Shown: in pieces, positions 5,361-62,421 of the stretch
Position numbering within the stretch: the stretch's first letter is position 1
How the letters are laid out: the number at the start of each line of letters is the position of its first letter
The notes under the pieces: model-generated
Seen by the model: only the letters and a program-made list of their open reading frames with translations
Databases searched by the model: none
What the model was told of the DNA's origin: nothing
Made by a program: the position numbers and the translations under genes
Source of the DNA: Methanotrichaceae archaeon
GTDB taxonomy: Archaea; Halobacteriota; Methanosarcinia; Methanotrichales; Methanotrichaceae
NCBI GenBank assembly: GCA_963803145.1
Contig: CAWDLW010000012.1
Span: 128,001-192,000 of the forward strand
Length of the DNA stretch: 64,000 bases
Direction: 5' to 3'

Positions 5361-5530
5361 ACTCCTTTTTGCTAACTCTCGCCAAGCATTACACCATCAC
5401 CGCAAAGGAAGCCTTATGACACAGCTCATCTCCACAGCCCTCTACAGCTCAGTAGCCCGCAGCCTAACAGGCCCATCCTCCGACATCGACCTCTTCATCG
5501 TGCTTCAGGAGACACCCTCGGGCATACTGG
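5340..5530 (+). pseudogene. Degenerate partial copy of the MNT nucleotidyltransferase at 6267
   Basis: QLISTALYSSVARSLTGPSSDIDLFIVLQETPSGIL vs QLVSIALYGSVARSQAGPSSDIDLFVVLQDAPSGML; DNA similar, G of GS motif lost, truncated. Confidence 0.8.
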
Positions 5531-5624
5531 CCTACTGTCCGTTTGCTCCTGACCAAATGAATGGATACCTGCATTCCAAAAAGTTTATCACGTCTGCTTC
5601 CCCACTAATGGGACAGTGAATTAA

Positions 5625-5885
5625 ATGCCAGTCACAAAGGTCGATGAAAAGGGCAGAGTAGTCCTGCCGGGTGAGCTCAGGCGCAAGCTGAGGATTAACA
5701 CCGGCGACGAGTTCATCGTAGAGGAGCTGGGGCCGGATTCACTCGTCCTGAAGAAGGTAAACCTGCGGGCTCTGATGCAGGATATCATAGAAAAGGCCAA
5801 GAACGTCGATATGGATAAGCTAGAGGCTGAGATTGAGGAAGAGGCTAATCGGCTTGCCAGACGAAAATACAAGATTCTTGATTGA
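5625..5885 (+). CDS. AbrB/MazE/SpoVT-family antitoxin (VapB-like)
   Basis: TKVDEKGRVVLPGELRRKLRINTGDEF. Confidence 0.85.
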   Translation: MPVTKVDEKGRVVLPGELRRKLRINTGDEFIVEELGPDSLVLKKVNLRALMQDIIEKAKNVDMDKLEAEIEEEANRLARRKYKILD

Positions 5886-5973
5886 TACCAATCTGTTCAT
5901 GGCCGCCGCAAAGAGTGGTTGGACTAAGAGCACAGATCTGCTCTCGCTATCCCCATGCGGTTGTGTACAATAA
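5854..5973 (+). pseudogene. Truncated PIN-domain (VapC-like) toxin
   Basis: TTG-started frame MPDENTRFLIDTNLFMAAAKSGW...* overlaps the antitoxin 3' end; PIN N-terminal xxDTN motif; only 39 aa. Confidence 0.65.
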
Positions 5974-6084
5974 GCTCGCCGGGCATCCAGGCAGTCTGCC
6001 ATCGGATGCCTGCAAAGAATAGGGCAGATTCGCAGGAATTCTTCCAAAGAACATTTAAGTTAGCTAGGTTGATATTATAAATCA

Positions 6085-6237
6085 TTGCCCACACTCACAG
6101 CAGTTATCCACAGAGAAGAAGACATGTACATTGCTGAGTGCTCGGAGGTAGGTACGGCAAGTCAAGGTAAGACCATCGAGGAGGCAGTGAAAAATCTCAA
6201 GGAAGCTACAGAGCTATATCTGGAGGAGTTTCCCTGA
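6085..6237 (+). CDS. HicB-like (UPF0150) antitoxin, short or frameshifted at the 3' end; no hicA partner seen
   Basis: Not in ORF track; TTG start, TLTAVIHREEDMYIAECSEVGTASQGKTIEEAVKNLKEATELYLEE. Confidence 0.8.
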   Translation: MPTLTAVIHREEDMYIAECSEVGTASQGKTIEEAVKNLKEATELYLEEFP

Positions 6238-6266
6238 AGGATAGGGAGCGTTAATCACCATAAAGG

Positions 6267-6779
6267 ATGTGTAGTGTGTCACTATCAAAGGCTGAGCTAA
6301 ACGCCATTTTTCGAACGCTTGCAGAGCGTTATGCAACAGCAGCCAAAATGGTCCTCGGAGATCAACTAGTTTCAATAGCCCTCTACGGCTCAGTAGCCCG
6401 CAGCCAGGCAGGCCCATCCTCCGACATCGACCTCTTCGTCGTGCTTCAGGATGCTCCCTCAGGCATGCTGGCCAGACGTCGTCTTCTCCAGCCTGTGCGT
6501 GACTCCCTCACAGCGGAGCTGGAAGGTCTATGGGAACAAGGCATCTACACTGATTTCATCGAGGTGATCCGCTCTAGGACAGAAGTTCTGCAGTTCCATC
6601 CCCTCTATCTGGATATGTCGCAGGATGCCATCCTGCTCTATGATCGTGACCAATTTTTGCATACTCTGCTTGAAAAGGTCAGAGAGCGCCTGCAAAGGGC
6701 GGGCGCTGAGCGCTATGCTATGGGAAAACATTGGTACTGGGATATGAAACAGGCCTTTGTGTCTGGGGAGGTTGTGTGA
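6267..6779 (+). CDS. Minimal nucleotidyltransferase (MNT) antitoxin
   Basis: LYGSVARSQAGPSSDIDLFVV (GS-x10-DxD); start may be GTG at 6276. Confidence 0.9.
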   Translation: MCSVSLSKAELNAIFRTLAERYATAAKMVLGDQLVSIALYGSVARSQAGPSSDIDLFVVLQDAPSGMLARRRLLQPVRDSLTAELEGLWEQGIYTDFIEVIRSRTEVLQFHPLYLDMSQDAILLYDRDQFLHTLLEKVRERLQRAGAERYAMGKHWYWDMKQAFVSGEVV

Positions 6780-6781
6780 TC

Positions 6782-7213
6782 ATGAATCCCAATGCTCCTG
6801 CCAGGCGCATGGTATCAAGAGCTCTAATCATCATTGAGGAGGCAGAGTACCTACAGAGAAAACTTGCCTGGAACATGGTTGTGCGGCGCTCTCAGGAGGT
6901 TGTAGAGCTGGCGTTAAAAGCTGCTCTCCTCTGGGCGCAAATAGAAGTGCCTCGTATCCATGATGTTGGACCCATACTAAAGCAATACTCTGACCGCTAT
7001 CCAGAACCATTTCGAGGGCGTATATCCCATCTAGCATCCATCTCTCGAATGCTGAGAGCAGAGCGTGAGATCAGCTTTTACGGGGATGAACAGAGCGGTA
7101 TACCTCCCGAGAGCCTCTATACTCCAGAAGATGCAAAGGAAGCCCTATCAAAGGCGCACGAAGTGCTGAGTGCCTGCCATGAGCTTATAGGTAAGGATGC
7201 CCTGGATGACTGA
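6782..7213 (+). CDS. HEPN domain protein (MNT-HEPN pair)
   Basis: SQEVVELALKAAL, PRIHDVG, EREISFYG; directly after MNT. Confidence 0.88.
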   Translation: MNPNAPARRMVSRALIIIEEAEYLQRKLAWNMVVRRSQEVVELALKAALLWAQIEVPRIHDVGPILKQYSDRYPEPFRGRISHLASISRMLRAEREISFYGDEQSGIPPESLYTPEDAKEALSKAHEVLSACHELIGKDALDD

Positions 7214-7229
7214 TCTTACTTTCATATGT

Positions 7230-8204
7230 CTAAATCGATATCTCATAACTCCCATTTCCAAACGTAGCCATCTTGCCTATATGGATCAGCTTACCTAACT
7301 CAAGCAAGGCCATGATCTCTCTTGAGAACTCCCCGGAATAGACGATCTCCCCTCTGAAAAATGGTGCCAGGGGTTTCTTCTCAGATCCCTGATCGTGGAA
7401 TCTGCGTTCCATCCATATCTCTTCTGTCTTGGCGCTTGCAATATTCACTCCCCGGCATAGGCTCAGGATAGATAGAACCTCCTCATGGTCATAGAGCATT
7501 CCAGGGCCGTAAAACTCAGCCAGGGCATTTGCCCTGGAGATCAGCCTTCCCATGAGGCCTCTGAAGCTTGGAGCAGCAGTGAACCTGCCGTTCTCCTTGA
7601 TCTGTGTAGGAGTAATGAAATGCATTGATAATTTTCCGGAGTGCTCCTGTGATGCCTCAACCATTTCCCTATAGCTGAGGCAAATTGATCTGTTATAAAC
7701 GGTCTCTCCCTGGAAGATATTTGATCTGGCTCCATACCCTATGGAGTCCACCGCCTCTAAACAGAACTTCCCCTTGCCCTCTCTGAAGCCCAGACTCATT
7801 CCCTTTTCCCCCAGGTTTCTCAGAGCCAAAAGGAAGTAAGGCAGATAAGACATAGCCTTTCCAACGAGGGTGAACCCGAGGACCAGCCCGTCTCCTGGGC
7901 TGTATCTTCCGGGCTTCGGCGGCTCGAAGGCAAAGGGTCTCGGAATCTCCTGGTTCCTCAGCACCTTCGCCCCATCAAATGGACGAGAGTTATAAAAGAA
8001 ATCGTAAGCACATGATGCCCTTTGAAGGCATCCTGAGCAATCATTCCCATGGCCTCCATAGCTCAGGCAGACCATCTCTTTCAATCTGGCCCCAAAGCCG
8101 CTTCTAAGTACATTGCCTGACCAGGGAGGAAGATCTGCAGCTGTGCTGAATCTGATACTGGCCTCATATCTGGCCAGCTCTAGGTTTTTCAGTTCCCTTT
8201 TCAT
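7230..8204 (-). CDS. cas6: CRISPR pre-crRNA endoribonuclease Cas6
   Basis: GNVLRSGFG, Cys cluster CxxC..C, PRPFAF, FITPTQIK, C-terminal Gly-rich loop HIGKMATFGNG. Confidence 0.88.
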   Translation of the reverse strand: MKRELKNLELARYEASIRFSTAADLPPWSGNVLRSGFGARLKEMVCLSYGGHGNDCSGCLQRASCAYDFFYNSRPFDGAKVLRNQEIPRPFAFEPPKPGRYSPGDGLVLGFTLVGKAMSYLPYFLLALRNLGEKGMSLGFREGKGKFCLEAVDSIGYGARSNIFQGETVYNRSICLSYREMVEASQEHSGKLSMHFITPTQIKENGRFTAAPSFRGLMGRLISRANALAEFYGPGMLYDHEEVLSILSLCRGVNIASAKTEEIWMERRFHDQGSEKKPLAPFFRGEIVYSGEFSREIMALLELGKLIHIGKMATFGNGSYEISI

Positions 8205-8767
8205 CGGGATTCCCCATTATTTATTCAAAGTAAAGTCGAAGGCGCCAATGACACATCAGACAGCCATTGGATATTAGAATATAAGCTTTCGACATCACCT
8301 CTATGACTATATTAGCGAGTATTATCTATCAATAGTTAATCTTATCCCCTTCAACCTTATAGCATGAATTTTCCAAAACCTTCCCCCGAAGAGGGGTTAG
8401 GGGCAGCCCGCGCGGCGATTGAGCGCGCTAAGATAGCCGTTAGTTTTAGCCCCTGAAGAAAGTGTAGTCTCTTGAATTAGTTGCAGCCTCAAACGCAAAA
8501 TCAATTATGCCTTCCTACGAAAAATCCATAGAGCGTATCGGTTTTTCATACTTAGAGCACGACGCATAGAATCACGAGGATTTTGTGGTTGATCGTTACT
8601 GAACTCTCATCACCAAGGCACGAAAAATTTACTTTGAGGATTGAAGTTATTAGGCGATTAGTCGAAAGAAGAACTGGAGTAGGATTGCATAACTCGTTCA
8701 AGGCTCGCTTGACTGAGGATAATTGCCTGCAAACGTTTAAGCCTGAGCGCAGCGGAAATATATCAGG

Positions 8768-48782: not shown

Positions 48783-51578
48783 GTGAACACATTCAGTCGG
48801 CTCTATCCCTCAATTGGAAAGATGCTAGCGGAGCAATCGATCACAGAGCCGACGCTGCCGCAAAAGCTGGCGATTCCTGAGATCTTGGATGGCAGAAACA
48901 TTCTTCTGATAGCTCCTACGGGCACCGGCAAGACTGAAGCTGCAGCTCTTCCAGTTCTCCATAAAATCCTAGCGGAGGAGCGTTCTGGAACACAGGCTAT
49001 CTATATCACGCCTCTGCGCGCCCTGAACAGGGATATGCTCAGACGTTTCGAAGAGTGGGGTGAGCGGCTGAACATATCAATCGCAGTTCGCCATGGAGAT
49101 ACAAGCAAAAGCGATAGAAGAAGACAGTCATTGAGTCCGCCTGATCTTTTGATCACTACCCCAGAAACTCTGCAGGTGATGCTCACTGGAAAGCGGCTGC
49201 GCAAAAATCTATCGAGCGTGAAGACAGTAATAGTCGATGAGATCCATGAGCTTGCATCATCAAAGAGAGGATCGCAGCTCTTTGTCCTTCTCGAGCGGCT
49301 GGTCGAGATCGCCGGCGAGTTCCAAAGGATCGGCCTGTCTGCTACTGTCGGATCGCCTGAGCAGGTTGCAAGGCTTCTTGCAGGCTCGCAAAGGCCATAT
49401 AAAATCATCAGGGCAGATATCCAGAGGGCTAGCGATTTTAAGATTGTCAGCCCTAACCCTACGCGAGCAGATTATGCTCTCGCAAGCCAGCTGGAATGCG
49501 ATCCTAGGTTAGCTGCACAGATTGGTTGGATCAGGGAGCAGGTCAAACTAAAGAAGTGTCTTATTTTCGTCAACACAAGACAGGCGGCTGAAGTTCTGGG
49601 CTCCAGGTTCAGGCTGCTTGGAGAGCCGATAGGAGTTCATCACGGGAGCCTCTCAGCCGAGACCAGGGTCGAGGCGGAGGAGGCGTTCAAAGGAGGCGCT
49701 CTTCGCGGCCTTATCTGCACATCATCAATGGAGCTTGGAATCGACATCGGTGATGTCGATCATGTCATCCAGTACAGCTCTCCTCGTGAGGTCTCAAGGC
49801 TGCTACAGCGAGTAGGTCGTTCAGGCCATAAGATAGGCCGAACGGCAGAAGGCACAATAATTGCCACATGCCCGGATGATATCGCCGAAGCATGTGCAAT
49901 TGCAAGACGAGCTGGAGAGGCAATGCTCGAAGAGATTCAGATTCACGAGAAGCCGATGGATGCTCTCGCAAATCAGATTGTAGGATTAGAGCTGGACTTC
50001 GGCGACATAAGCCTCCAGCAAGCTCATAGAATCATAACCAGGGCTTATCCCTTCCGTGACCTAACGCTTGATGAGCTGAGGAAAGTAGCAGAGCAGATAG
50101 CCGAAAGCAGACTTACACGAATTCAGGGTGATATCCTCCAGAGGACACGTAAGGCCCGCGAGTACTACTACGAGAACCTCTCGATGATTCCCGATGAGAA
50201 GAGATACAATGTCTACGACATCATCGGCCGCAAATCGATAGGAACATTGGATGAGGCATTTGTAGTCAGCTATGCCCAGCCTGGTGCAACTTTTGTAACA
50301 AAGGGCGAGATCTGGGAGATCTCGGAGATCGACGAGGACGAGATCAAGGTCATGCCTATTCAGCGCAGCGGCGAAATTCCATCCTGGAGCGGTGAAGAAA
50401 TACCTGTTCCATTCGATGTGGCACAGGAGGTAGGCAGGATAAGGGAAAGTGTCCGACTATATCTGGAATCCGATGGCAAGGATGCTGCTGTAAACTGGCT
50501 GACCGAAAGCTATCCTGTTGATCGTGAGGCTGCAGCAGAGTTTATCGATCTGATAGAGATGCAGATAAGGAAAAATCTGCCGGTCCCCGATGACAAACAT
50601 ATCGTTATTGAGGGAGGCGGCACCGAAGTTATCATAAACTCATGCTTCGGCCACAAGACAAACGATACCCTGGGAAGGGCAATAACGGCTATGCTCTCTG
50701 CAAAGTTCGGATCAAGCGTTGCTTCAGAGATAGATCCTTACAGGATAGAGCTGACATTGCCGCGTTCCGTGATCGCTGAGGAGATCGCAAAAACGATCAT
50801 GGAGCTGAAACCCGAGCATCTGGAGCCGATCCTTGAGATGACCCTCAAGAATACCACTCTGCTCAAGTGGAAGATGGTTCATATCGCCAGGAAGTTCGGA
50901 GCTCTATCTAGGGATGTGGACTTCCAGAGAATTAGCATAAACAGGCTGCTCTCAGTATTCGAGGGAACGCCAATGTACCGTGAAGCAATACGGGAAATAT
51001 ACCAGGATCGGTTAGATCTCCCCCGTGCCAGGCAAATACTCGAAGAGATTCACAAAGGCAACATCGTTATTACCACCAGCAGCCCGAGTCCAATAGGTGC
51101 CAGCGGCAGGGGAGGCGGCAGAGATGTGACGTCGCCGGAGCATGCAGATGGCGCAGTAATAGAGCTTCTGAAATCAAGGATCATGAACGATTCCGTGATA
51201 TTATTCTGCGTCAACTGCAAGAAGTGGAAGTCGCTCCGTGCAGTGGGCCGCGTTCCGGAGCAGCCTGAATGTCCCATCTGCGGCTCCAAGATGGTCGCAG
51301 CCCTCAAGCCCTGGGAAGAAGAGGAGATAAAGGTAGTCAAGAAGCCCGAAAAGAAGAAGACGCCAGAAGATCGTCGAAGGACAAAGCGGGTCTTCAGGAA
51401 TGCCAATCTTGTCTTGAGCTATGGCAAAACTGCGGCAATTGCGCTTGCGAGCCGCGGACTTGGGCCCGAGACCGCGGCAAGAGTAATCGGCAAGCTTCGA
51501 ACAGATGAGCTTGAGTTCTATCGGGATATCCTGAAGGCGGAGAGGGAGTATGCGAGGACGAAGAGGTTCTGGAGTTAA
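48783..51578 (+). CDS. lhr: Lhr-like ATP-dependent DEAD/DEAH helicase
   Basis: APTGTGKT, TTPETL, DEIH, SAT, HHGSL, QRVGRSGH, C-terminal Zn finger. Confidence 0.92.
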   Translation: MNTFSRLYPSIGKMLAEQSITEPTLPQKLAIPEILDGRNILLIAPTGTGKTEAAALPVLHKILAEERSGTQAIYITPLRALNRDMLRRFEEWGERLNISIAVRHGDTSKSDRRRQSLSPPDLLITTPETLQVMLTGKRLRKNLSSVKTVIVDEIHELASSKRGSQLFVLLERLVEIAGEFQRIGLSATVGSPEQVARLLAGSQRPYKIIRADIQRASDFKIVSPNPTRADYALASQLECDPRLAAQIGWIREQVKLKKCLIFVNTRQAAEVLGSRFRLLGEPIGVHHGSLSAETRVEAEEAFKGGALRGLICTSSMELGIDIGDVDHVIQYSSPREVSRLLQRVGRSGHKIGRTAEGTIIATCPDDIAEACAIARRAGEAMLEEIQIHEKPMDALANQIVGLELDFGDISLQQAHRIITRAYPFRDLTLDELRKVAEQIAESRLTRIQGDILQRTRKAREYYYENLSMIPDEKRYNVYDIIGRKSIGTLDEAFVVSYAQPGATFVTKGEIWEISEIDEDEIKVMPIQRSGEIPSWSGEEIPVPFDVAQEVGRIRESVRLYLESDGKDAAVNWLTESYPVDREAAAEFIDLIEMQIRKNLPVPDDKHIVIEGGGTEVIINSCFGHKTNDTLGRAITAMLSAKFGSSVASEIDPYRIELTLPRSVIAEEIAKTIMELKPEHLEPILEMTLKNTTLLKWKMVHIARKFGALSRDVDFQRISINRLLSVFEGTPMYREAIREIYQDRLDLPRARQILEEIHKGNIVITTSSPSPIGASGRGGGRDVTSPEHADGAVIELLKSRIMNDSVILFCVNCKKWKSLRAVGRVPEQPECPICGSKMVAALKPWEEEEIKVVKKPEKKKTPEDRRRTKRVFRNANLVLSYGKTAAIALASRGLGPETAARVIGKLRTDELEFYRDILKAEREYARTKRFWS

Positions 51579-52031: not shown

Positions 52032-52691
52032 AAACGTAATACCCCACAGCTTGTTGTGGATGGGATAAAGGGCATCCGTATACAACTTAGGGATGGATCA
52101 GCTAGCCAATTGTGATTTAATGCGGCGACGCCTCGCATGCCTCACTGTTTGCAGCGTGAGATAAAATACCGGTAAGAACCTTTTTCATCGAACTTGGAAG
52201 GATCACCTATAATTATATTATCCTTGCCATTCTGTTAGCTGTCGCTTTACATTTTCAAAGGTTGGGTCTTTGATCCTTTCGAAAATTTTAAGCGCAGACT
52301 GAGCATAGTCAACAGCCTTAGATTGTTCCCCTATCTTATATAATACGAGGCTTATATTCCATAAGGCATTGCCCTCTCCAGCAGGGACTCCAATCTTACG
52401 GAAGATTTCTAATGATTGCTCATAGGATTCGATGGCCTGGCGAGATTCGCCTAGTCTCTCATAGGCCACACCAAGGTTGCCTAAAACGTTTGCCTTTCCT
52501 TTAAGATCTCCAATATTATTAGCAATTTCTAATCTCTTTTCATAATATTCAATTGCCTGGATAGGTTCGCCTAACGCACAGTATGCAATGCCTAAATTAT
52601 TTAAATCTGCACATTCTCCTTTCAGATCTCTTAATTCTCTGTCAATTATCAGAGCTTTCTTATAAAATTCAATAGCATATTGAAGCTTACC

Positions 52692-53829
52692 GAGGATTCC
52701 TATTTACTTGTATCCTAAGGGCGGTTTTTTTAAATCGACTCTAGATTTGCCTTACGATGTTCGCTATTCTTGGTCTAACCTGTTTTTTTTCAGTTAATTC
52801 TCGATAGCATCCGCTATCCCTAAATGACATTTGCCTTTTTAAGAGTACAAAGCTGATACAAGTTAAAAGCGAAAGCGGTAACTATCATTTTCACATGCAC
52901 TCTTCTGACTGATGTAACAAGCACTCTTCCAGCCTCGAAAACCCTCTTGATTACAGCATGGGGCCTTTCGCCAGGCGATCTGAGGATACTGATCAACTGA
53001 TTGCGTTCTTTATCAAGATCAGAAAGAGGTTTATCAGTAGTCCTGCGCTTCATTGTAAAATCAATACCTTTGGCCTTCACACCGAAATATCCTCTATCTC
53101 TGAAAACTGGCACGCCAGGGATAGAGAGATCAACCTGACTGTCATGCAGTGATGCAGTCGAGGTCTCTATATCACGTATTAGGCTGTAATCGATATCAGT
53201 TATTTGATGTAACTTATATCCGAAGTGAGTTTCATTGCCTTTCTTAGCCCATGTGCCATCCTTGCTGCGACGTGTCTTAGCCTCATCGCCACGTGGTTTC
53301 TTTGACTCCGATGATCCTGGATCTGCTTCTATAAAGGTAGCATCCTGAACAATTCCGCGTCTGATCTTCAATCCTTTTGCATCCAACTGTCTTTGAAGTT
53401 CAGCCCAAACAAGCCTATCTGTTCCTGTCTCCGCCATTCGTTCTTTGAATGACCATATAGTTCTGGAATCAGGGAACTGATCAGGAAAACCAAGAAATGC
53501 CATAAATGATATGCGATCAGCCATTTGCCGTTCAACAGCCAGATCGCTCAGGCCATACCACTGCTGGAGAATCAGGATCCTGAACATTAGAATAACATCA
53601 CAGTTGGGCCTTCCTCCCTTCTCGGTCTTATTAGTATACATCCCTTCCAGAAGAGGACGAAAGGGAACCCAATTGATCAATCCAGATACTTGAGCTAATT
53701 TAGACTCCTCTTGCTTTGCATTTAGACCTTTCAATACCCAAGTAGTAAAAGAATCCATAACAATAAATACTATTTGCTGTATTTAACACTTTCGATGCTA
53801 AAGCAGGGGGTAGGTTTATAGGAATCCTC
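52692..53829 (-). mobile_element. IS5-family insertion sequence, 1138 bp
   Basis: TIRs GAGGATTCCTATTTAC / GTTTATAGGAATCCTC (14/16); 4-bp TSD TACC at 52688-52691 and 53830-53833. Confidence 0.95.
52820..53758 (-). CDS. IS5-family DDE transposase (intact, 312 aa)
   Basis: GGRP..LQQWYGLSD..PDSRTIW, VQDATF, FGYKLH, DRGY, RSPGERP. Confidence 0.95.
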   Translation of the reverse strand: MDSFTTWVLKGLNAKQEESKLAQVSGLINWVPFRPLLEGMYTNKTEKGGRPNCDVILMFRILILQQWYGLSDLAVERQMADRISFMAFLGFPDQFPDSRTIWSFKERMAETGTDRLVWAELQRQLDAKGLKIRRGIVQDATFIEADPGSSESKKPRGDEAKTRRSKDGTWAKKGNETHFGYKLHQITDIDYSLIRDIETSTASLHDSQVDLSIPGVPVFRDRGYFGVKAKGIDFTMKRRTTDKPLSDLDKERNQLISILRSPGERPHAVIKRVFEAGRVLVTSVRRVHVKMIVTAFAFNLYQLCTLKKANVI

Positions 53830-55850
53830 TACCTATTGATAGATAAATAGTCCCTATATTCCCTAGAACTGTTTCTTCTCCGACAAGATCTTTAATTTCT
53901 TGGGAGATCTTAAGGCTTTTATTATAGAAATCTAATGCAATATGAGGCTTACCTAGTTTTAAATATATATTACCTAGATCACATAATGCTGTATATTCTC
54001 CCTTGATATCCCTTAAATAACATGAAATTTCCAATCGCTTTTCATGCATCTGAATACCCTGTTGAAATTTCCCAGTTTGCGAATAGATTCTGCCTAAAGA
54101 ACTCAAAGCTTTGCTTGCCCCTCTTAAATCCCCTCTCCCTAAATGGATTTCTAAAGCCTTCCGATACGATTCATCAGCTTTTTTTAACTTCCCCAGATGC
54201 TGATAAACCCTACCGAGATTGCCACAGGCGTTGCCTTCGCCATACTTATCTCCAATTTTATGGGCTATATGAAGAAATCTCTTAAAAAGTTTAAGGGCAT
54301 TATGGTAATCTCCAAAATGAATATTGGCGTTACCCATATTGCCTAGTACATAACACTCTAATTGGCGATTTCTAATCTTATGGGCGACAGCAAGTGCCTG
54401 ATTATAATAATCAATAGCAAGATGCATATCTCCTAGATCAGCACAAGCTAAGCCTAACAGATTAAGGAAAGCTCCCTCGTTGTTGTAATCTCCAATAGCA
54501 AGCGCAGCCTGTAAGCCTGCTTTGGCTACCTTAACTCTTTCTGTTGAATAGCCTTGTAAATCTAAGTAATTATCGAACATTAAGGTTATTTTACAGACAG
54601 CATCCCATTCACTAGCATCAAGGCAAGCAGATTGTAGCGCTAAAATATGAGCGCGATTAGTATCAATGATGATCTTACCTGGTAGACCCGGACCCCCTTG
54701 CTCCTTTAATAAGTTACAGTAATATTGAGCAAGGCGTAATAACATATCATGCTCCGTTACTAGATCTTTTCGTGCGTATGTATATGCTAATGTATGCGCT
54801 ACGTGATAGAACGTATCAGGTCTTATTATCAAACCGTAATCTACTAGCTCCCCCAAATGGCGATCAGCTTCATGTCTAGGTATATTTAAGGCTGTAGCGA
54901 TGAGTTCTGGACCAAAAGGGCTCATTGCTAATATGCCAGCCACCCTAAATGAGGCGCGTGATAACTCACTTAGCTGATCTAAGCTACGCTTCATTAATAC
55001 AGGTATACTTTGATGCTGCCGCTCTCCTAGGTCTAGGGCTGCCAGAGGTGTGGCCTCAAGCCATGCAAGATAATCCTCGGCTTGTTGATGGCATTGAGAC
55101 ATATATTTTCCTGCTAGAACGATCGCAAGGGGTAAGCCCCCCAGGAATTCACAAATCCTATTAGCTGATACTTCATCGGCTGCATAATTATGCCCCCATG
55201 CACGTAATAGCTGGATAGCTTGGTCTTGTGGTAAAGGTGATAAATCACTCCAATCGGCAGGAGCATCTCTATGACGTCGACTAGTAATGATAATACCACA
55301 ACTCACAGCAACCTCTAAGATTACATCCAAATTATCGGCAGATTCAGCACCATCTAATATAAGAAGGGCTTTGCGACCTGCCAATGCACGGCGAGCAGTA
55401 TCGATTGGGCTGGGTCGTGGATCTTCTCCAAATGCACGGGCTAATGCCTCTAAGGCAAGACTGGCCTGGGGTTGATGGTAAAATGTATGAAAAATCACTC
55501 CATCTGGAAATTGACTGGGGGGACTATTATCAGGGGCAAGGCGCCAAAGTATCTCAGATACAAGAGCAGTCTTGCCGATACCTCCTGGACCACATAATGT
55601 AACTGCATAACCAGGCTTTAATGAATCTAATAAGGTTGCAAGTTCCTTTTCACGGCCAACAAAATGGTGGGTTCGGGGCGGCTTCTGCAGAGGGATATGT
55701 AGTGAAAGAGACGGCGCGTTAATAATGACTGGCCCATGAAACTTTCCAGAAAGCACTGGGCCATCTGCATTTCCCCTTATGTTAGTCTGGGAACCATCTC
55801 CAGCTTTATCCTGTTGGCTCATGGTGGATTCCCTTTATTATCCGATATTT

Positions 55851-56288
55851 TCATTTGGATTCTCTTGCGTTAACTGAACCGTGGAAATTGCCTGAAAGCA
55901 CAGGGCCATTTACATTACCAGCGATGTTTGTCTGTGAGCCATGGATTATTTGTCCACGCTGATCGAAAACACTGCTGGCTGTACCTTTCTCTTCAATTGC
56001 TTCAATTAACTTGCCTACTTCTTCAGCGAACTTCGTGTCCTTTTCCATTTTTTCAGCTAAGACATCCTTAAGTGCTGCCTGCCTATCTTCTGACTCAGGT
56101 TTCTCTTTTGCGCGAGCTAGCGTTTGCTCGGCGAATGTGTCTCCTTTGAATTTATTCTCGACTGCCTGGCATAATTCCACAAACTTTTTGCCGAGTCCCT
56201 CGCCAGCAGTTTTGATAAATGAATCTCCTCCCTTGGCAAGATAGGGGGCTGCTGCAGCTGCGATTAATCCAACATCGACAGGTAACAT
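55851..56288 (-). CDS. Small helical (Bell/HeLo-like) putative effector with C-terminal amyloid-like motif
   Basis: Hydrophobic N-terminal helix (VGLIAAAAAPYL), helical body, C-terminal GSQTNIAGNVNGPVLSGNFHGSV matching the NLR N-terminus; ends 28 nt before the NLR ATG. Confidence 0.8.
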   Translation of the reverse strand: MLPVDVGLIAAAAAPYLAKGGDSFIKTAGEGLGKKFVELCQAVENKFKGDTFAEQTLARAKEKPESEDRQAALKDVLAEKMEKDTKFAEEVGKLIEAIEEKGTASSVFDQRGQIIHGSQTNIAGNVNGPVLSGNFHGSVNARESK

Positions 56289-56441: not shown

Positions 56442-57760
56442 CTATTTATCACGCTTTTGTTTTTCAATAGGGCTGTCGAGCGTAACTTCATGAATGAAAG
56501 TTCCTGAAAGTACGTGTCCATGCACATCGCCGTAAATATTCGTTATGGCTTTTGCTCCTATGAACAAAGAGGTTAATAAGACCAGCTTTAAAGTTTCAAA
56601 TCTCTGTTCTAATGTTGCTGTATCTTGAGATTCTAATAGAGCAAGGGTTTCAAGATACTCTTGTGCCTCCTTGGGAAATTTTTTGCAGTGAAGCTTCAGA
56701 AGTGGAACAATCTCCAGCAAATAACGATCTGCAGCTATTGGTGAGCTGATATCTTTCAACCCCTTAGTTGCATCGTAAGTAAGCTTTCCGAAATCTTCAA
56801 GAGCAGTTCCCTTAGAGCTTTTACAGAGCTTCCGTGCTGCATCCTCTACATCCTTAAATATAGTCTTGATTTTATCATCGATGATCGGGATTCCCCTTTC
56901 AACCATAGCAGCATCTACTACCTTGGAAGCAAAAGGTGCTCTGCCCCTTACCCTCTCCAAGCAATCCACTGCCTGGAAGCAATATCTAGTGTAGGCTTTG
57001 AGATCCTGTTTCCGAGATATCATATCTTCCACGGTATATGTCTTGACCTCCCAGAGAGCCTTAGATAGGTTATCCACAGCTTCAAGGAGGATCTCCTCCA
57101 TACTCTCAGAGACTTTTACTGCCTCCTTAGCCTCTTAGCCTCAGCTAGATATCTCTGGATCTCCTCTGCCTTAGATACATCTCTAAACAAAAGACTGTGT
57201 AGTGATTTATAAAAGGGCAGACAAAAAACAGCATGGTTCTCATTTCTCCAATTCCCCGGGCTATCCGAGGATTTTTGGAAGAATTCGATCGCTTCTTCTA
57301 GGTGAGCTTTGAGATCCCTATCATCGGCCTCAGTTGCCTTGAAGATGCATGCCCGACCTAAGGAATGATAGGAGATAGACCTGATGGCTTCATCCTTCTC
57401 CTTAGAGAGCCTATCTAATTCTCTCCAAACTAGAGACTTGTAAGGCAAGCTAGGGAATAACGATCCAAGCACGCAGCCTACTTCCCATCGTACATAGCGA
57501 TTCCGGTCATTAGCTAATCTGTGAAGATCCTGCCATACAAGATGATCGCTAGGCAAGTTAGGGAACGCCAACTCAATCGCGGCAACTGCATATTTTCGCA
57601 CAAGAAAATGGTGATCCTGGGTTAGCCTATGTAGGTCTTGCCAGGCAGCTTCTTTGTCATCCAGATGGTCAAACTCGTTTCCGAGCAGTGTTGCAGCATG
57701 TTGCCTATGTTCTGTACTCTCAGAAATTGACATCTCATGGATCTCTGCGTAGGATACCAA
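56442..57760 (-). pseudogene. HEAT-repeat protein with C-terminal amyloid-like motif, frameshifted by an 8-bp duplication
   Basis: AWQDLHRL..D...VR HEAT-like repeats; TTAGCCTC x2 at 57127-57142; removing one copy joins ORFs 57116-57760 and 56442-57101 (436 aa); C-terminal TNIYGDVHGHVLSGTF. Confidence 0.8.
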
Positions 57761-59967: not shown

Positions 59968-62421
59968 ATGGATGACAGCATAATAATGAAAAAGTTGCTA
60001 CATGAAGCTTTTAACAATAAAAAACAGTTAATCTCTTTCCGAAGCGCCCTAATACTTGGGGCCTGCATTATTCTTGGTAACATAGTGATAGTTGTCTCGC
60101 TAAGAGATAACCTAGCGCTTATCAGGACAGTTGGCGATTTTGTAGCTCCTCTAATAGAGCTTTTTTCGGTATTCTGTATGGCCTATGCAGCTAGCAATTT
60201 CAAAAAATCAGGAGAGCAGGTATGGCTCGCCTGGGTTATTCTCGCTGCTGCCCAGTTCTCTTATGCGATTGGAGATGTTGTATGGTCCATAATCGAATTA
60301 GGACAACATCGATTACCCTTCCCATCGCGAGCGGATGGATTTTATCTGATGTTTTACCCTCTATTTGCTGCAGGTATTCTTCTTTTGCCCAAAAGACCCA
60401 TGGCCTCAGGTGACAGGATTAAGGTACTATTGGACACTGGCATCGTGATGATTGCCTCCATTTTGCTGTTTTGGGCATTCTTGATCGCTCCGGCCGTTAA
60501 GTCCTTTTCGGGGACAGATGCCTTTACTGTGATTCTTGCTGTGGGCTATCCCATAATGGATCTGCTGCTAATCTTTACGCTGATAGAGCTATTGCTCAGA
60601 AGGCTAAGTTACACAGAAATCAGCCCGTTGGCTCTATTAACAGCTAGCATAGTGATAATGATCATCACTGATATAATTTTCATGAACCAATCATTACAGA
60701 GGAAGTACATCTCAGGTGGCTTGTTGGACACGGGGTGGTATGCAAGCTTTTTATTGATGGGGCTTGCCGGCATACTTCAGGCAAATTCACAGCGATTCAA
60801 TCTACCATCCCTATCTTTAGTACCTGAACCCAAGCCTAGATACGTCCAGTTTACGTGGCCTCTTTATTTTCCTTATATATTGGCGGGAGTTGCCTACATT
60901 CTTCTTATCTACAATTACAATCACCCGTTTCCCATAGCATTTTCCACTATGGCTCTAAGTGTGGGCTGCATCGTTGGCCTTGTAATCATCCGTCAGATTG
61001 TTGCCTTAAAAGAAAACTCCAGGCTGTATGGGATGACCCTAAAGGAGATTGCTGAACGCAATAAAAAAGAAGAAGAGATCAAGAGGCTCAACGAAGAGCT
61101 GGAAGTTCGGGTTATCGAGCGCACTGCAGAGCTCGACGATACAAACAAAAGGCTGCGAAATGAGATCCTTGAACGTGAAAAGACTGAAGAGGATCTGCAT
61201 AAGGCCAAAGAAGCAGCGGAAGCTGCAATGACAGCTAAATCTGAGTTCCTCGCCATTATGAGCCATGAGATAAGGACCCCAATGAATGCAGTCATTGGAA
61301 TGACCGGTTTCCTCCTGGATTCTAATCTCGATAAAGAGCAGCGTGAACACGTTGAGATTATAAGAAATAGCGGCAATGCTCTTCTCTCTGTAATAAATGA
61401 TATTCTTGACTTCTCTAAAATCGAGAACGGTAAGATGGTGCTGGAGAGCCAAGCATTTGATCTTAGAAGTTTTATTAAAGCCAGCATGGATTTGGTAGCT
61501 AACAATGCCGCCGAGAAAGGCCTGAAGCTGGTATGTATAATAGAAGATTCTGTGCCTAGTGCAATCATAAGCGATCCGACTAGGCTACGTCAGATCTTGG
61601 TCAATCTGCTCAGCAACGCCGTCAAGTTTACTGATAAAGGCGAGGTCGAGATATCCGTCACCTCCCAGACGATTAAGGATGGCAGATGCGAGCTTCACTT
61701 TGCTATCAGGGATACTGGGATTGGGATACCAAAGGATAGAATGGACAGGCTCTTCCAATCATTCAGCCAGATCGATATGACCACCACTCGGAAGTATGGT
61801 GGAACAGGTTTAGGACTGGCCATAAGCAAGCGCCTTGTCGAAATCATGGGCGGCAAGATCTGGGCGGAAAGCGAGTCGGGGATAGGATCTACATTTCACT
61901 TTATGCTTTCGGTTGATACGTCATTGGATCATTTCCCCAAGCCTGAAGAGGCTCCTTATCGATCAAAGGGCAATGTTCATGCTAACGCTAATGCTAATTT
62001 GCGCATCCTCCTTGTAGAGGATAATGTGATCAATCGGAAGGTCATGTTGCATATGCTCAAGAAGCTGGGCTATAGAGCAGAGGTAGCTGCAGATGGCATG
62101 GAGGCTCTCAGGATTCTAAATCTCGAGCATTATGACATTGTGCTTATGGATATACAGATGCCGGGGATGGATGGCATTGAGGCCACAAAGGAGATACGCA
62201 AACGTTGGCCCAATGGGCCGGTGGTCGTTGCTCTCACTGCCTATGCATTGGATGGTGACCGAGAGCGATGCATGGAGGCAGGCATGGATGGATACATTAG
62301 CAAGCCTGTGAAGATAGAGGAGCTGGAAGCTGTGCTGCTGAATTGCGAGGATAAAATAGCAGAACGATCGGGTTCCTACAAAAAGGAGAGCGAGATAACT
62401 GGGCTTGTCAATAACACCTAG
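59968..62421 (+). CDS. Membrane-bound hybrid sensor histidine kinase with receiver domain
   Basis: Multi-TM N-terminus; [32 protein letters not shown]; LVEDN..MDIQMP..KP. Confidence 0.95.

Follow-up and report, generated by a model that had tools for sequence, protein, structure and literature searches.

Does an archaeon possess an effector that is switched on by a neighbouring receptor through a short amyloid-type motif carried by both proteins? This question is raised by two adjacent genes in a 64,000-nt stretch of DNA from a Methanotrichaceae archaeon (GCA_963803145.1, contig CAWDLW010000012.1, positions 128,001-192,000 of the forward strand; hereafter, the window). One gene codes for a protein of 145 amino acids (the effector) and the other for a NOD-like receptor (NLR) embedding an NB-ARC domain and tetratricopeptide repeats (TPRs). 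Amyloid signalling from NLRs to effectors is established in fungi, and one functional example is available in bacteria. The Bell domain and the amyloid signalling motif families BASS1-10 were defined in a preprint that also places Bell domains in the Methanosarcinales and includes a Methanothrix soehngenii Bell protein in its alignment (10.1101/2020.01.06.895854). A first-pass annotation of the window, made from the sequence alone, had noticed the same motif at the C-terminus of the effector and at the N-terminus of the NLR and had proposed an amyloid-based cell-death pair. The data reported here make it probable that the window harbors a Bell-domain effector and an NB-ARC/TPR receptor linked by a short amyloid-type signalling motif. 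The basis for this idea is the architecture of the two proteins, the pairing of their genes in related organisms, the co-variation of the two motif copies, the selection acting on them, and the presence in the effector of a helical domain followed by a tail predicted to be disordered.

A motif shared by the effector and the NLR

Residues 117-139 of the effector (GSQTNIAGNVNGPVLSGNFHGSV), followed by six residues (NARESK) up to the C-terminus, match residues 10-32 of the NLR (GSQTNIRGNADGPVLSGKFHGPV), which are preceded by MSQQDKAGD. The first-pass annotation had counted 18 identities over 23 residues and no other similarity between the two proteins; the recomputed identity is the same, and tblastn returned a single high-scoring segment pair of 34 residues. 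Both genes lie on the minus strand and are separated by 28 nt, the ATG of the NLR being at position 55822. The interval given by the first-pass annotation (55727-55940) extends precisely from the outer edge of one motif to that of the other. The Smith-Waterman (SW) score of the pair is 100, versus 21.6 +/- 4.6 (maximum 50) in 5000 shuffles. The codon alignment (17/24 identical residues, 49/72 identical bases) revealed that 11 of the 17 identical residues are encoded by different codons in the two copies, which excludes a recent duplication or conversion. Judging from these codons, silent sites are almost saturated between the two copies, yet the peptide is preserved, that is, purifying selection is holding them alike. 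The shortness and the biased composition of the motif might suggest that the resemblance arose by chance or was left by a recent duplication at the locus; however, a score well above the shuffle maximum, the different codons, and the same pairing in all of the 23 evaluable related loci (see below) lead us to regard this idea as refuted.

A hidden Markov model (HMM) of the motif, built on 79 effector tails, all from other genomes, was run on the 72,419 six-frame open reading frames (ORFs) of at least 30 aa of the source genome. Five matches at E < 0.01 were obtained, the next one having an E value of 0.61: the window effector (4.8e-13), the window NLR, a nearby ORF of 219 codons (ORF219; 4.1e-4), and the effector and the NLR of a second system located on contig C34 (5.1e-15 and 7e-8, respectively). 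All of them fall within the two systems of this genome, ORF219 being counted with the window system, and the motif was not found scattered among many unrelated proteins of the source genome. A homolog search carried out with residues 1-42 of the NLR retrieved the query alone among 4 candidates, the word index and the length filter limiting this search.

The motif is enriched in G (2.1x), N (3.2x), V (1.8x), and Q (1.7x) and depleted in K (0.09x) and L (0.22x), a residue usage that agrees with the published description of BASS motifs. A G-x-h-h-x-G element can be recognized, by eye only, twice in the effector tail (GQIIHG and GPVLSG). The modelled complex between effector residues 100-145 and NLR residues 1-50 scored 0.02, the mark being 0.32, and weighs neither way.

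The effector and its family

The AlphaFold2 model of the effector, obtained with 105 relatives in the alignment, contains helices at residues 6-19, 21-27, 30-47, 51-62, 67-83, and 85-105; the confidence (predicted local distance difference test, pLDDT) is mostly 87-95 over residues 6-105 and below 50 over residues 103-145. The protein starts with MLPVDVGLIAAAAAPYLA, and its N-terminal 15-residue windows are the most hydrophobic ones; an acidic residue is located at position 5, and most relatives begin with MDP... and have it at position 2. The predicted structure is therefore an all-helical domain of ~100 aa whose first helix is hydrophobic and which carries an acidic residue close to its start, as expected for a Bell domain.

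At E <= 0.01, 164 homologs of the effector were found (261 candidates); among the 120 of these 164 that were listed, most are 133-146 aa long, and the few named ones belong to Methanothrix or Methanotrichaceae. The tails of the family are rich in G/N/S/V, and three variants exist among the relatives: a long one (...FDQRGQTVHGxQTNIAGNVxGPVLSGTFSGPVN...), a form with 'EANAPV', and a short one ending with ...FDQRGQTVGTQTNIGNVQGSVNIGTK. Only eight columns are invariant in the alignment of the 105 family members, Q113 and Q119 of the tail being among them, and segment 1 of the tail (Table 1) comprises the most conserved columns of the family, with F108, D109, Q110, G112, T120, N121, and I122 conserved in at least 90% of the sequences. 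The family profile matched 40 of the 104 other Methanotrichaceae genomes; elsewhere in the class, it matched 2 of 177 genomes from a single family and none of 110 from the remaining families. The Methanothrix-type Bell domain with its motif is also found fused to NB-ARC/TPR, CHAT, PNP_UDP, and DUF4062 domains.

The profile of the 105 relatives, searched against 1.84 billion representatives, retrieved 1140 clusters at E <= 1e-3. The distant ones contain proteins of ~130-140 aa that start with M-[DE]-P-..-LA...APYLAKAGE, share the same N-terminal helix, and carry several recurrent tails rich in G/N/Q/V/I. This is the form in which Bell domains with BASS motifs have been described, and the effector family can thus be considered homologous to them. 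The link to named bacterial Bell proteins comes from the papers and from a lead of the ESM Atlas, whose clusters nearest to the effector are cyanobacterial, actinobacterial, and acidobacterial (score 0.94, 197 common features; lead only). The Pfam domain HetE-N is assigned to 26% of the members of the first of these clusters, and one out of 30 distant relatives matched it with 17.4 bits; in the source genome it had no match, the named control genomes giving none either. The precomputed labels and the Atlas neighbour suggest a distant relation of the effector family to HetE-N, on which the literature search returned unrelated chemistry and medicine papers only.

As regards other searches, the family profile gave nothing usable among solved structures (best E 0.072), with Pfam at E <= 10 the effector matched only two families, both weak and unrelated, and PADLOC and NCBIfam had no match on the effector or on ORF219. 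The idea of an FxSxx-COOH system for ribosomally synthesized and post-translationally modified peptides, raised by the best NCBIfam match (130 bits, cut-off 300), was discarded; no maturase was present among the ORFs scanned.

Pairing of effector and NLR genes in related loci

The relatives comprise 28 loci, all from Methanotrichaceae, Methanothrix, Methanosaeta, or uncultured Methanosarcinales records. Five of them were left out of the count: L006 and L014, which end inside the effector gene; L023, whose tail is altered and whose sequence stops 27 nt further on; L028, a 33%-identity match with 70 nt of downstream sequence; and L029, a fragment. In all of the 23 evaluable loci, the effector gene is either followed by a same-strand ORF with a P-loop (22 loci) or fused to NB-ARC (one locus, L019), and in the 22 non-fused loci, the N-terminus of the P-loop ORF carries the motif ~55-70 residues ahead of Walker A. 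Strict effector-derived HMMs (E <= 0.01, genome-sized search) found the NLR side in 11 of the 23 loci, the short-type NLR copies (FDQKxQSVxTQTNI...) being more diverged from these HMMs; the same HMMs matched none of the unrelated ORFs in the related loci.

The two sides also vary together. Over the 22 pairs, the mean motif score is 72.0 for cognate and 50.6 for non-cognate combinations, and none of 10,000 permutations was as high; because of the kinship of the loci, and because much of the signal comes from the two main variants, this figure is to be taken as support and not as a probability. Indeed, 'EANAPV' is present on both sides in L005 and L007, ...FSGQF.GPVAQGGDANDFRG occurs on both sides in L004, and FHG is found on both sides in the window pair only. 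The layout of a signalling pair proposed by the first-pass annotation is therefore retained: a helical effector with a disordered tail, a collinear NB-ARC/TPR gene 28 nt away, and a motif that co-varies and is under selection, recovered by HMM in five ORFs of the source genome and paired or fused in all the evaluable loci.

Short-type pairs (e.g., L008, 1736-5381) are located directly after genes resembling those for an adenylate kinase and a tRNA synthetase (named by eye), suggesting that they occupy a fixed place in the chromosome and not a mobile island. The conserved minus-strand ORF of 222 aa observed at these loci is the antisense frame of the kinase gene.

The NLR and its interruption by an insertion sequence

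In addition to the NB-ARC domain, Pfam recognized TPR families in the NLR with E values from 1e-30 to 1e-12, TPR_12 (E 5.4e-30) being one of them. Walker A (GPGGIGKT) is located at residue 78, and everything before the NTPase consists of the motif and a Pro-rich linker, which leaves no room for another N-terminal domain, as the first-pass annotation had maintained. On this basis, the receptor can be assigned to the NB-ARC-type NTPases of the STAND class (NLR-like), with Walker A followed by repeats. In its Walker B-like stretch (LLILDG, residue 153), a glycine takes the place of the second acidic residue, or of the asparagine, seen in many NB-ARC proteins; the paralog on C34 has LLLLDN. PADLOC and NCBIfam matched the NLR with generic TPR/STAND models only, all below their cut-offs, and Tandem Repeats Finder detected no array.

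The NLR gene is split by an insertion sequence (IS) having perfect 12-nt terminal inverted repeats and a transposase with the Pfam domains DUF772 and DDE_Tnp_1. The genome contains 13 copies of this IS sharing 98.4-100% identity, six others being identical to that of the window. The in silico removal of the IS and of one TACC copy joins 53830-55822 to 52218-52687 in a single frame of 820 codons in which the TPRs run on to the stop; the remnant ends with ...KRQLTEWQG, as do the intact NLR C-termini of L001 and L008. The sequence indicates that the insertion is recent because the target duplication is intact and six other IS copies are identical. About 156 residues (~156) of the TPR sensor array are cut off the receptor, and this copy of it is probably disabled or deregulated by the IS.

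One might wonder, then, whether the window locus is a decaying remnant lacking a present function, in which the effector gene has merely not yet degraded, a possibility that we keep in mind without favouring it. The recent insertion would fit this idea, as would the split of the two ORFs next to the effector (HEAT214 and ORF219) by a stop and a frame change, these ORFs being a single gene in relatives and the gene upstream of the effector being chimeric; no RNA data were found, the sequencing runs listing no RNA run and one DNA run with 7% of the words. However, the effector ORF is intact, as are the 664 codons at the start of the NLR (embedding the motif, Walker A, and NB-ARC), and an NLR short of some repeats need not be inert; moreover, the effector tail, being nearly as similar to the NLR on C34 as to its own partner, may still be used. 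In any case, the idea of a remnant bears on the present activity of the locus and not on the nature of the system.

A third motif copy, a second system, and possibly composite tails

ORF219, which ends with ...AKAITNIYGDVHGHVLSGTFIHEV..., contains a third and weaker copy of the motif (ITNIYGDVHGHVLSGTFIHEV), sharing 12/24 and 11/24 identical residues with the Bell and NLR copies, respectively. Over residues 2-183, it shows homology to a helical domain lying inside long HEAT-repeat proteins, which are encoded by open frames of ~420-960 aa in 35 of 105 family genomes (the source genome included). Many HEAT repeats precede the domain in these proteins; in the nearest relatives, the domain is followed by a coiled coil and by a C-terminal helix that is hydrophobic. 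In the window, the HEAT part (HEAT214) is short, and HEAT214 and ORF219 are collinear but split by a stop and a frame change, whereas tblastn revealed one long gene in relatives (L031-L039). These HEAT-protein loci share a conserved FCLPFYRS-type region plus the helical domain. The homology of ORF219 to the HEAT family breaks off at ...LVLLTSL, after which the motif-bearing tail begins, in place of the coiled coil and the hydrophobic end normal in that family; in the AlphaFold2 model, the helices extend to residue 193, and the tail (186-219) has a pLDDT below 50. Foldseek returned 0 matches at E <= 1e-3 for this model, and the ESM Atlas gave no usable match for ORF219. We can imagine that ORF219 has become a second client of the NLR by motif capture, an explanation that we consider admissible rather than probable; alternatively, it is possible that ORF219 is the debris of a rearrangement.

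An intact second system is present in the same genome (L001, contig C34 of G000, 5462-8442); it consists of a Bell-type effector, an ORF of 139 aa, and an NB-ARC/TPR NLR of 644 aa with the motif. Half a motif (FDQRDQIIDGPQINI) opens the 139-aa ORF and precedes a domain without an assigned family that, in P0055 and P0090, is fused behind Bell and motif (BLASTP E 5e-35). The SW score of the window effector tail is 96 with its own NLR and 81 (16/33 identical residues) with the intact NLR on C34; because of this close similarity, it is conceivable from the sequences that the window effector could still answer to the latter, i.e., that cross-activation occurs.

Other loci show more complex arrangements. 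In L003 (4893-9944), two NLRs come after a single effector with a long tail; the first NLR has the short segment only (..INQHGQKVVGPQINVAGDAT..) and the second one the long form (..QTNIAGGVEGPVLSGEFHDRV..). In L004 (4869-10358) and L013 (4977-10407), the effector is composed of Bell, motif 1, motif 2, and a CHAT protease domain, and two NLRs follow. Motif 2 (DFRG..IYKPS..V.QHFGD) resembles by eye the D[LF]RDAKG start of BASS3/RHIM-like motifs; it is matched by the N-terminus of the first NLR (scores 61 and 79, shuffle maximum 42), while the second NLR matches motif 1. Lastly, all-in-one forms exist (L019, 2447-3406; P0032, P0134, and P0140) in which Bell, a single motif, and NB-ARC (and TPR) are encoded by one frame, the motif being an internal linker.

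We would go no further than a tentative suggestion that the tails of Methanotrichaceae might be composite, i.e., made up of exchangeable segments (a BASS3-like FDQRGQ..QTNI, a BASS2-like GNVxGPVLSGxFxGPV and, in some loci, DFRG..IYKPS..QHFGD), with the segment of the NLR deciding which effector it fires. According to this suggestion, one effector would integrate several receptors (L003, L004, and L013), possibly with cross-talk between the two systems of the source genome, and new clients would arise via motif capture, as might be the case for ORF219 with its domain from a HEAT-family, tail-anchored protein. If this was true, the archaeon would possess not a set of isolated pairs but an amyloid signalling network capable of evolving.

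The coordinates of the window features are reported in Table 1.

Table 1. Features of the effector/NLR locus and of its surroundings, in window coordinates.
Feature	Position	Strand	Remarks
Effector gene, 145 aa	55851-56288	-	ORF; putative Bell-type helical domain, residues 1-105 (55974-56288), and disordered tail
Effector-side signalling motif, residues 108-139	55872-55967	-	Segment 1, FDQRGQIIHGSQTNI; segment 2, the 23 residues common with the NLR, 55872-55940
NLR gene 5' part, residues 1-664	53830-55822	-	Motif, Pro-rich linker, NB-ARC, first TPRs
NLR ORF as listed, 668 aa	53816-55822	-	Last 4 codons belong to the IS
NLR-side motif, residues 10-32	55727-55795	-	18/23 identity to the effector tail; E 8.3e-9 with the HMM built on other genomes
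NB-ARC domain, residues 63-257	55052-55636	-	Pfam PF00931, 31.1 bits, cut-off 23.5
Insertion sequence, 1138 bp	52692-53829	.	Transposase ORF 52820-53758 (-)
4-bp duplication TACC	52688-52691 and 53830-53833		Flanks of the IS
NLR gene 3' remnant	52218-52691	-	TPRs and original stop; TPR_12 E 9.3e-11 on 52218-52469
ORF219	56442-57101	-	Helical domain, residues 1-183; third motif copy, residues 186-206, 56484-56546
HEAT-repeat ORF, 214 aa (HEAT214)	57116-57760	-	Pfam HEAT_2
Lhr-type DEAD-box helicase	48783-51578	+	Neighbour gene
Membrane hybrid histidine kinase/response regulator	59968-62421	+	Neighbour gene

Proposed mechanism and alternative explanations

According to the mechanism that we propose, the TPR array would sense a trigger, and the NB-ARC module would oligomerise, gathering several N-terminal motifs, which would then take a cross-beta (beta-arch) fold. 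The effector tail, otherwise disordered, would be templated into this same fold, and its refolding would free the hydrophobic first helix of the bundle, leading to the attack on the membrane and to the killing or the arrest of the cell. Two parts of this scheme are taken by analogy from the literature. The first one is amyloid-like aggregation: the synthetic NLR-side peptide AEB69175.1(5-29) of M. soehngenii exhibited cross-beta bands in Fourier-transform infrared spectra and bound Congo red (PMC8086366). The second one is the amyloid-triggered death caused by Bell-type proteins: in the E. coli Bab/Agp pair (BASS11), the amyloid motif is needed for phage-triggered death (10.1101/2024.11.07.622273). 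We infer that the long BASS2-like variant might form amyloids as well, and that membrane attack, cell death, and an immune or antiviral role might belong to the system.

Several observations weigh against this explanation. Concerning the effector, Foldseek returned 0 matches in the PDB at E <= 1e-3 for its model, and the best Z in the wide VIA search was 5.3; the ZAR1 coiled-coil (6j5t_G) had a Z of 5.1 (root-mean-square deviation 3.0, 75 aligned residues), a value within the chance level of helical bundles. Thus, the bundle envisaged by the first-pass annotation was predicted, including its hydrophobic first helix, but without a significant fold match. In addition, Pfam HetE-N (PF20701) matched none of the 105 family members at E <= 1 (gathering cut-off 25 bits). 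As to the locus, the copy in the window may do nothing, its receptor being interrupted; moreover, no recognised defence gene flanks it, PADLOC reports no defence system, and its neighbours, an Lhr-type helicase and a histidine kinase, do not form a defence island. Concerning the motif, proline is 1.5x enriched, though BASS motifs are described as proline-depleted (10.1101/2020.01.06.895854); co-variation is also expected for any direct non-amyloid binding; and the assay on the M. soehngenii peptide was limited to segment 1 of an NLR of the short type and did not concern the long variant.

Alternatively, the shared motif might be a plain docking peptide, acting by beta-strand addition or via an adaptor, as the effector-associated domains of other STAND systems do, without any prion-like templating. 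The pairing, the co-variation, and the selection demand matching copies and are silent on the mode of interaction, and the enrichment in proline and two tails predicted only as disordered would suit a docking peptide. Nevertheless, aggregation with cross-beta signatures has been observed for a peptide of this family, and the published BASS profiles picked up long tails (PMC8086366); the composition and the length of the motif fit those described for amyloid signalling motifs; and the use of one effector tail by several NLRs via different segments (L003, L004, and L013) fits templating modules. For this reason, docking without templating appears improbable to us.

A different objection concerns the biological role. 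The module might be a real NLR/Bell one and yet serve programmed death or differentiation in Methanothrix filaments or aggregates, or the recognition of non-self cells, instead of antiviral defence. In the preprint on Bell domains, Bell/NLR pairs are linked to a multicellular growth habit rather than to phage defence (10.1101/2020.01.06.895854); in addition, the window locus has no defence-island context, and the short-type loci are located at a fixed chromosomal site beside adenylate kinase. We consider a role of this sort unlikely; indeed, the sole functional test of a prokaryotic Bell-type/amyloid pair concerned antiphage abortive infection (10.1101/2024.11.07.622273), and a patchy presence (40/104 genomes), many variants, and IS insertions are typical of conflict systems.

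Significance and comparison with known systems

An amyloid-type Bell/NLR pair, as the window probably harbors, is of a kind already described in bacteria, fungi, and Methanothrix, and the window pair is a further copy and probably not a new motif family. Archaeal Bell/NLR pairs were reported in 2020: two of them, in the Methanosarcinales, were found by pairwise alignment and missed by the BASS HMMs (10.1101/2020.01.06.895854), so that the novelty attributed by the first-pass annotation to an archaeal pair was overrated; Table S2 of that preprint may already list a long-type pair. In full-text searches, only this preprint and PMC8086366 were found to bring together Methanothrix, amyloid, and NLR, and a search since 2021 for archaea, amyloid signalling, and the Bell domain gave nothing beyond a fungal study and a review. 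What is new here is the IS cut in the NLR frame and the third, weaker motif copy on a chimeric ORF (both absent from the first-pass annotation), the intact second system on C34, and the putatively composite tail.

The suggestion that the motif might be a family of its own is probably not correct. In PMC8086366, the BASS training sets are Bell-side fragments matched by the HMMs of each family, the largest set being that of BASS2 (329 sequences), and they hold two long Methanothrix-type tails, nearly identical to those studied here (C02_s098 and C02_s110). Cluster C02 is probably BASS2, because it is the largest set seen (indices to 317) and BASS2 is the largest family. The 23 residues of the window share 13 residues with C02_s284 (...TNTISGGVQHGPVIQGQSFHGSI...) by eye and with three one-residue gaps; judging from the sequence, they are probably BASS2-like, and the preceding segment probably corresponds to the published BASS3-like archaeal motif. 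The comparison with motif profiles foreseen by the first-pass annotation thus yielded, by eye, a probable likeness to BASS2 via the training set, while the models of RHIM and PP (core of the G-[IV]-Q-[IV]-G type) and of HET-s/HRAM (two pseudorepeats of 21 residues) had no match in the Pfam scans of the effector (E <= 10) or of the NLR (E <= 0.1), where, as regards RHIM and PP, HMMER filters can drop short weak matches.

The window in itself is modest, being one more, freshly disrupted copy, and its interest rests on the size and modularity of the family and on the availability of testable peptides. The archaeal evidence so far comes from a single peptide assay and from two gene pairs listed in a supplementary table. 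The window and its relatives point to an archaeal family that is large and under selection (164 effector homolog clusters; 40/104 other Methanotrichaceae genomes) and diverse, with short, long, and 'EANAPV' motif variants, multi-motif effectors, and all-in-one fusions. It offers small peptides and gene pairs with which to test amyloid templating in archaea and the way in which receptor-effector specificity is encoded.

The closest known system is the AEB69174.1/AEB69175.1 pair of M. soehngenii, which belongs to the same protein family and has the same layout as the window pair. By eye, the first 150 residues of AEB69175.1 differ from the NB-ARC part of L019 at ~15 of ~143 positions, and the Bell part of L019 is 50% identical to the window effector. 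The motif of AEB69175.1, missed by the BASS1-10 HMMs, was said by the authors to be 'resembling BASS3' (PMC8086366, 10.1101/2020.01.06.895854). In the tails examined here, the counterpart of the tested peptide (...FDQRGQKVIGQQINVAGD...) is segment 1, with the pattern FDQRGQ...Q.N[IV]AG. The M. soehngenii NLR is of the short type, its ...INVAGDATL leading straight into the Pro-rich linker; unlike AEB69175.1, the window NLR lacks the FDQRGQ part and has the later 23 residues (TNIxGNxxGPVLSGxFHGxV), and, unlike the M. soehngenii pair, the window copy is disrupted by an IS and is accompanied by a third motif copy.

The BASS2 Bell/NLR pairs of Actinobacteria and Cyanobacteria come next, since C02_s098 and C02_s110, with their Methanothrix-type tails, are in the Bell-side set that is probably the one of that family; with respect to BASS2, the archaeal tail has VLSG for the VQ[AG]RD core and an extra upstream segment. 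The likeness to the fungal HET-S/NWD2 system (HRAM) concerns the organization: there, the adjacent gene codes for a helical effector that targets the membrane and whose tail, disordered before conversion, ends with a motif templated by that at the N-terminus of the NLR. The two systems have no sequence relation; the window effector is Bell and not HeLo, and the NLR is NB-ARC/TPR and not NACHT/WD. Finally, Bab/Agp differs from the window pair in having a TPR-GreA/B-C-PIN sensor instead of an NLR, a shorter effector domain (~80 aa), another motif family, and a bacterial host; it resembles the window pair in combining a small Bell-type helical effector with a C-terminal amyloid motif that is matched at the N-terminus of the adjacent sensor.

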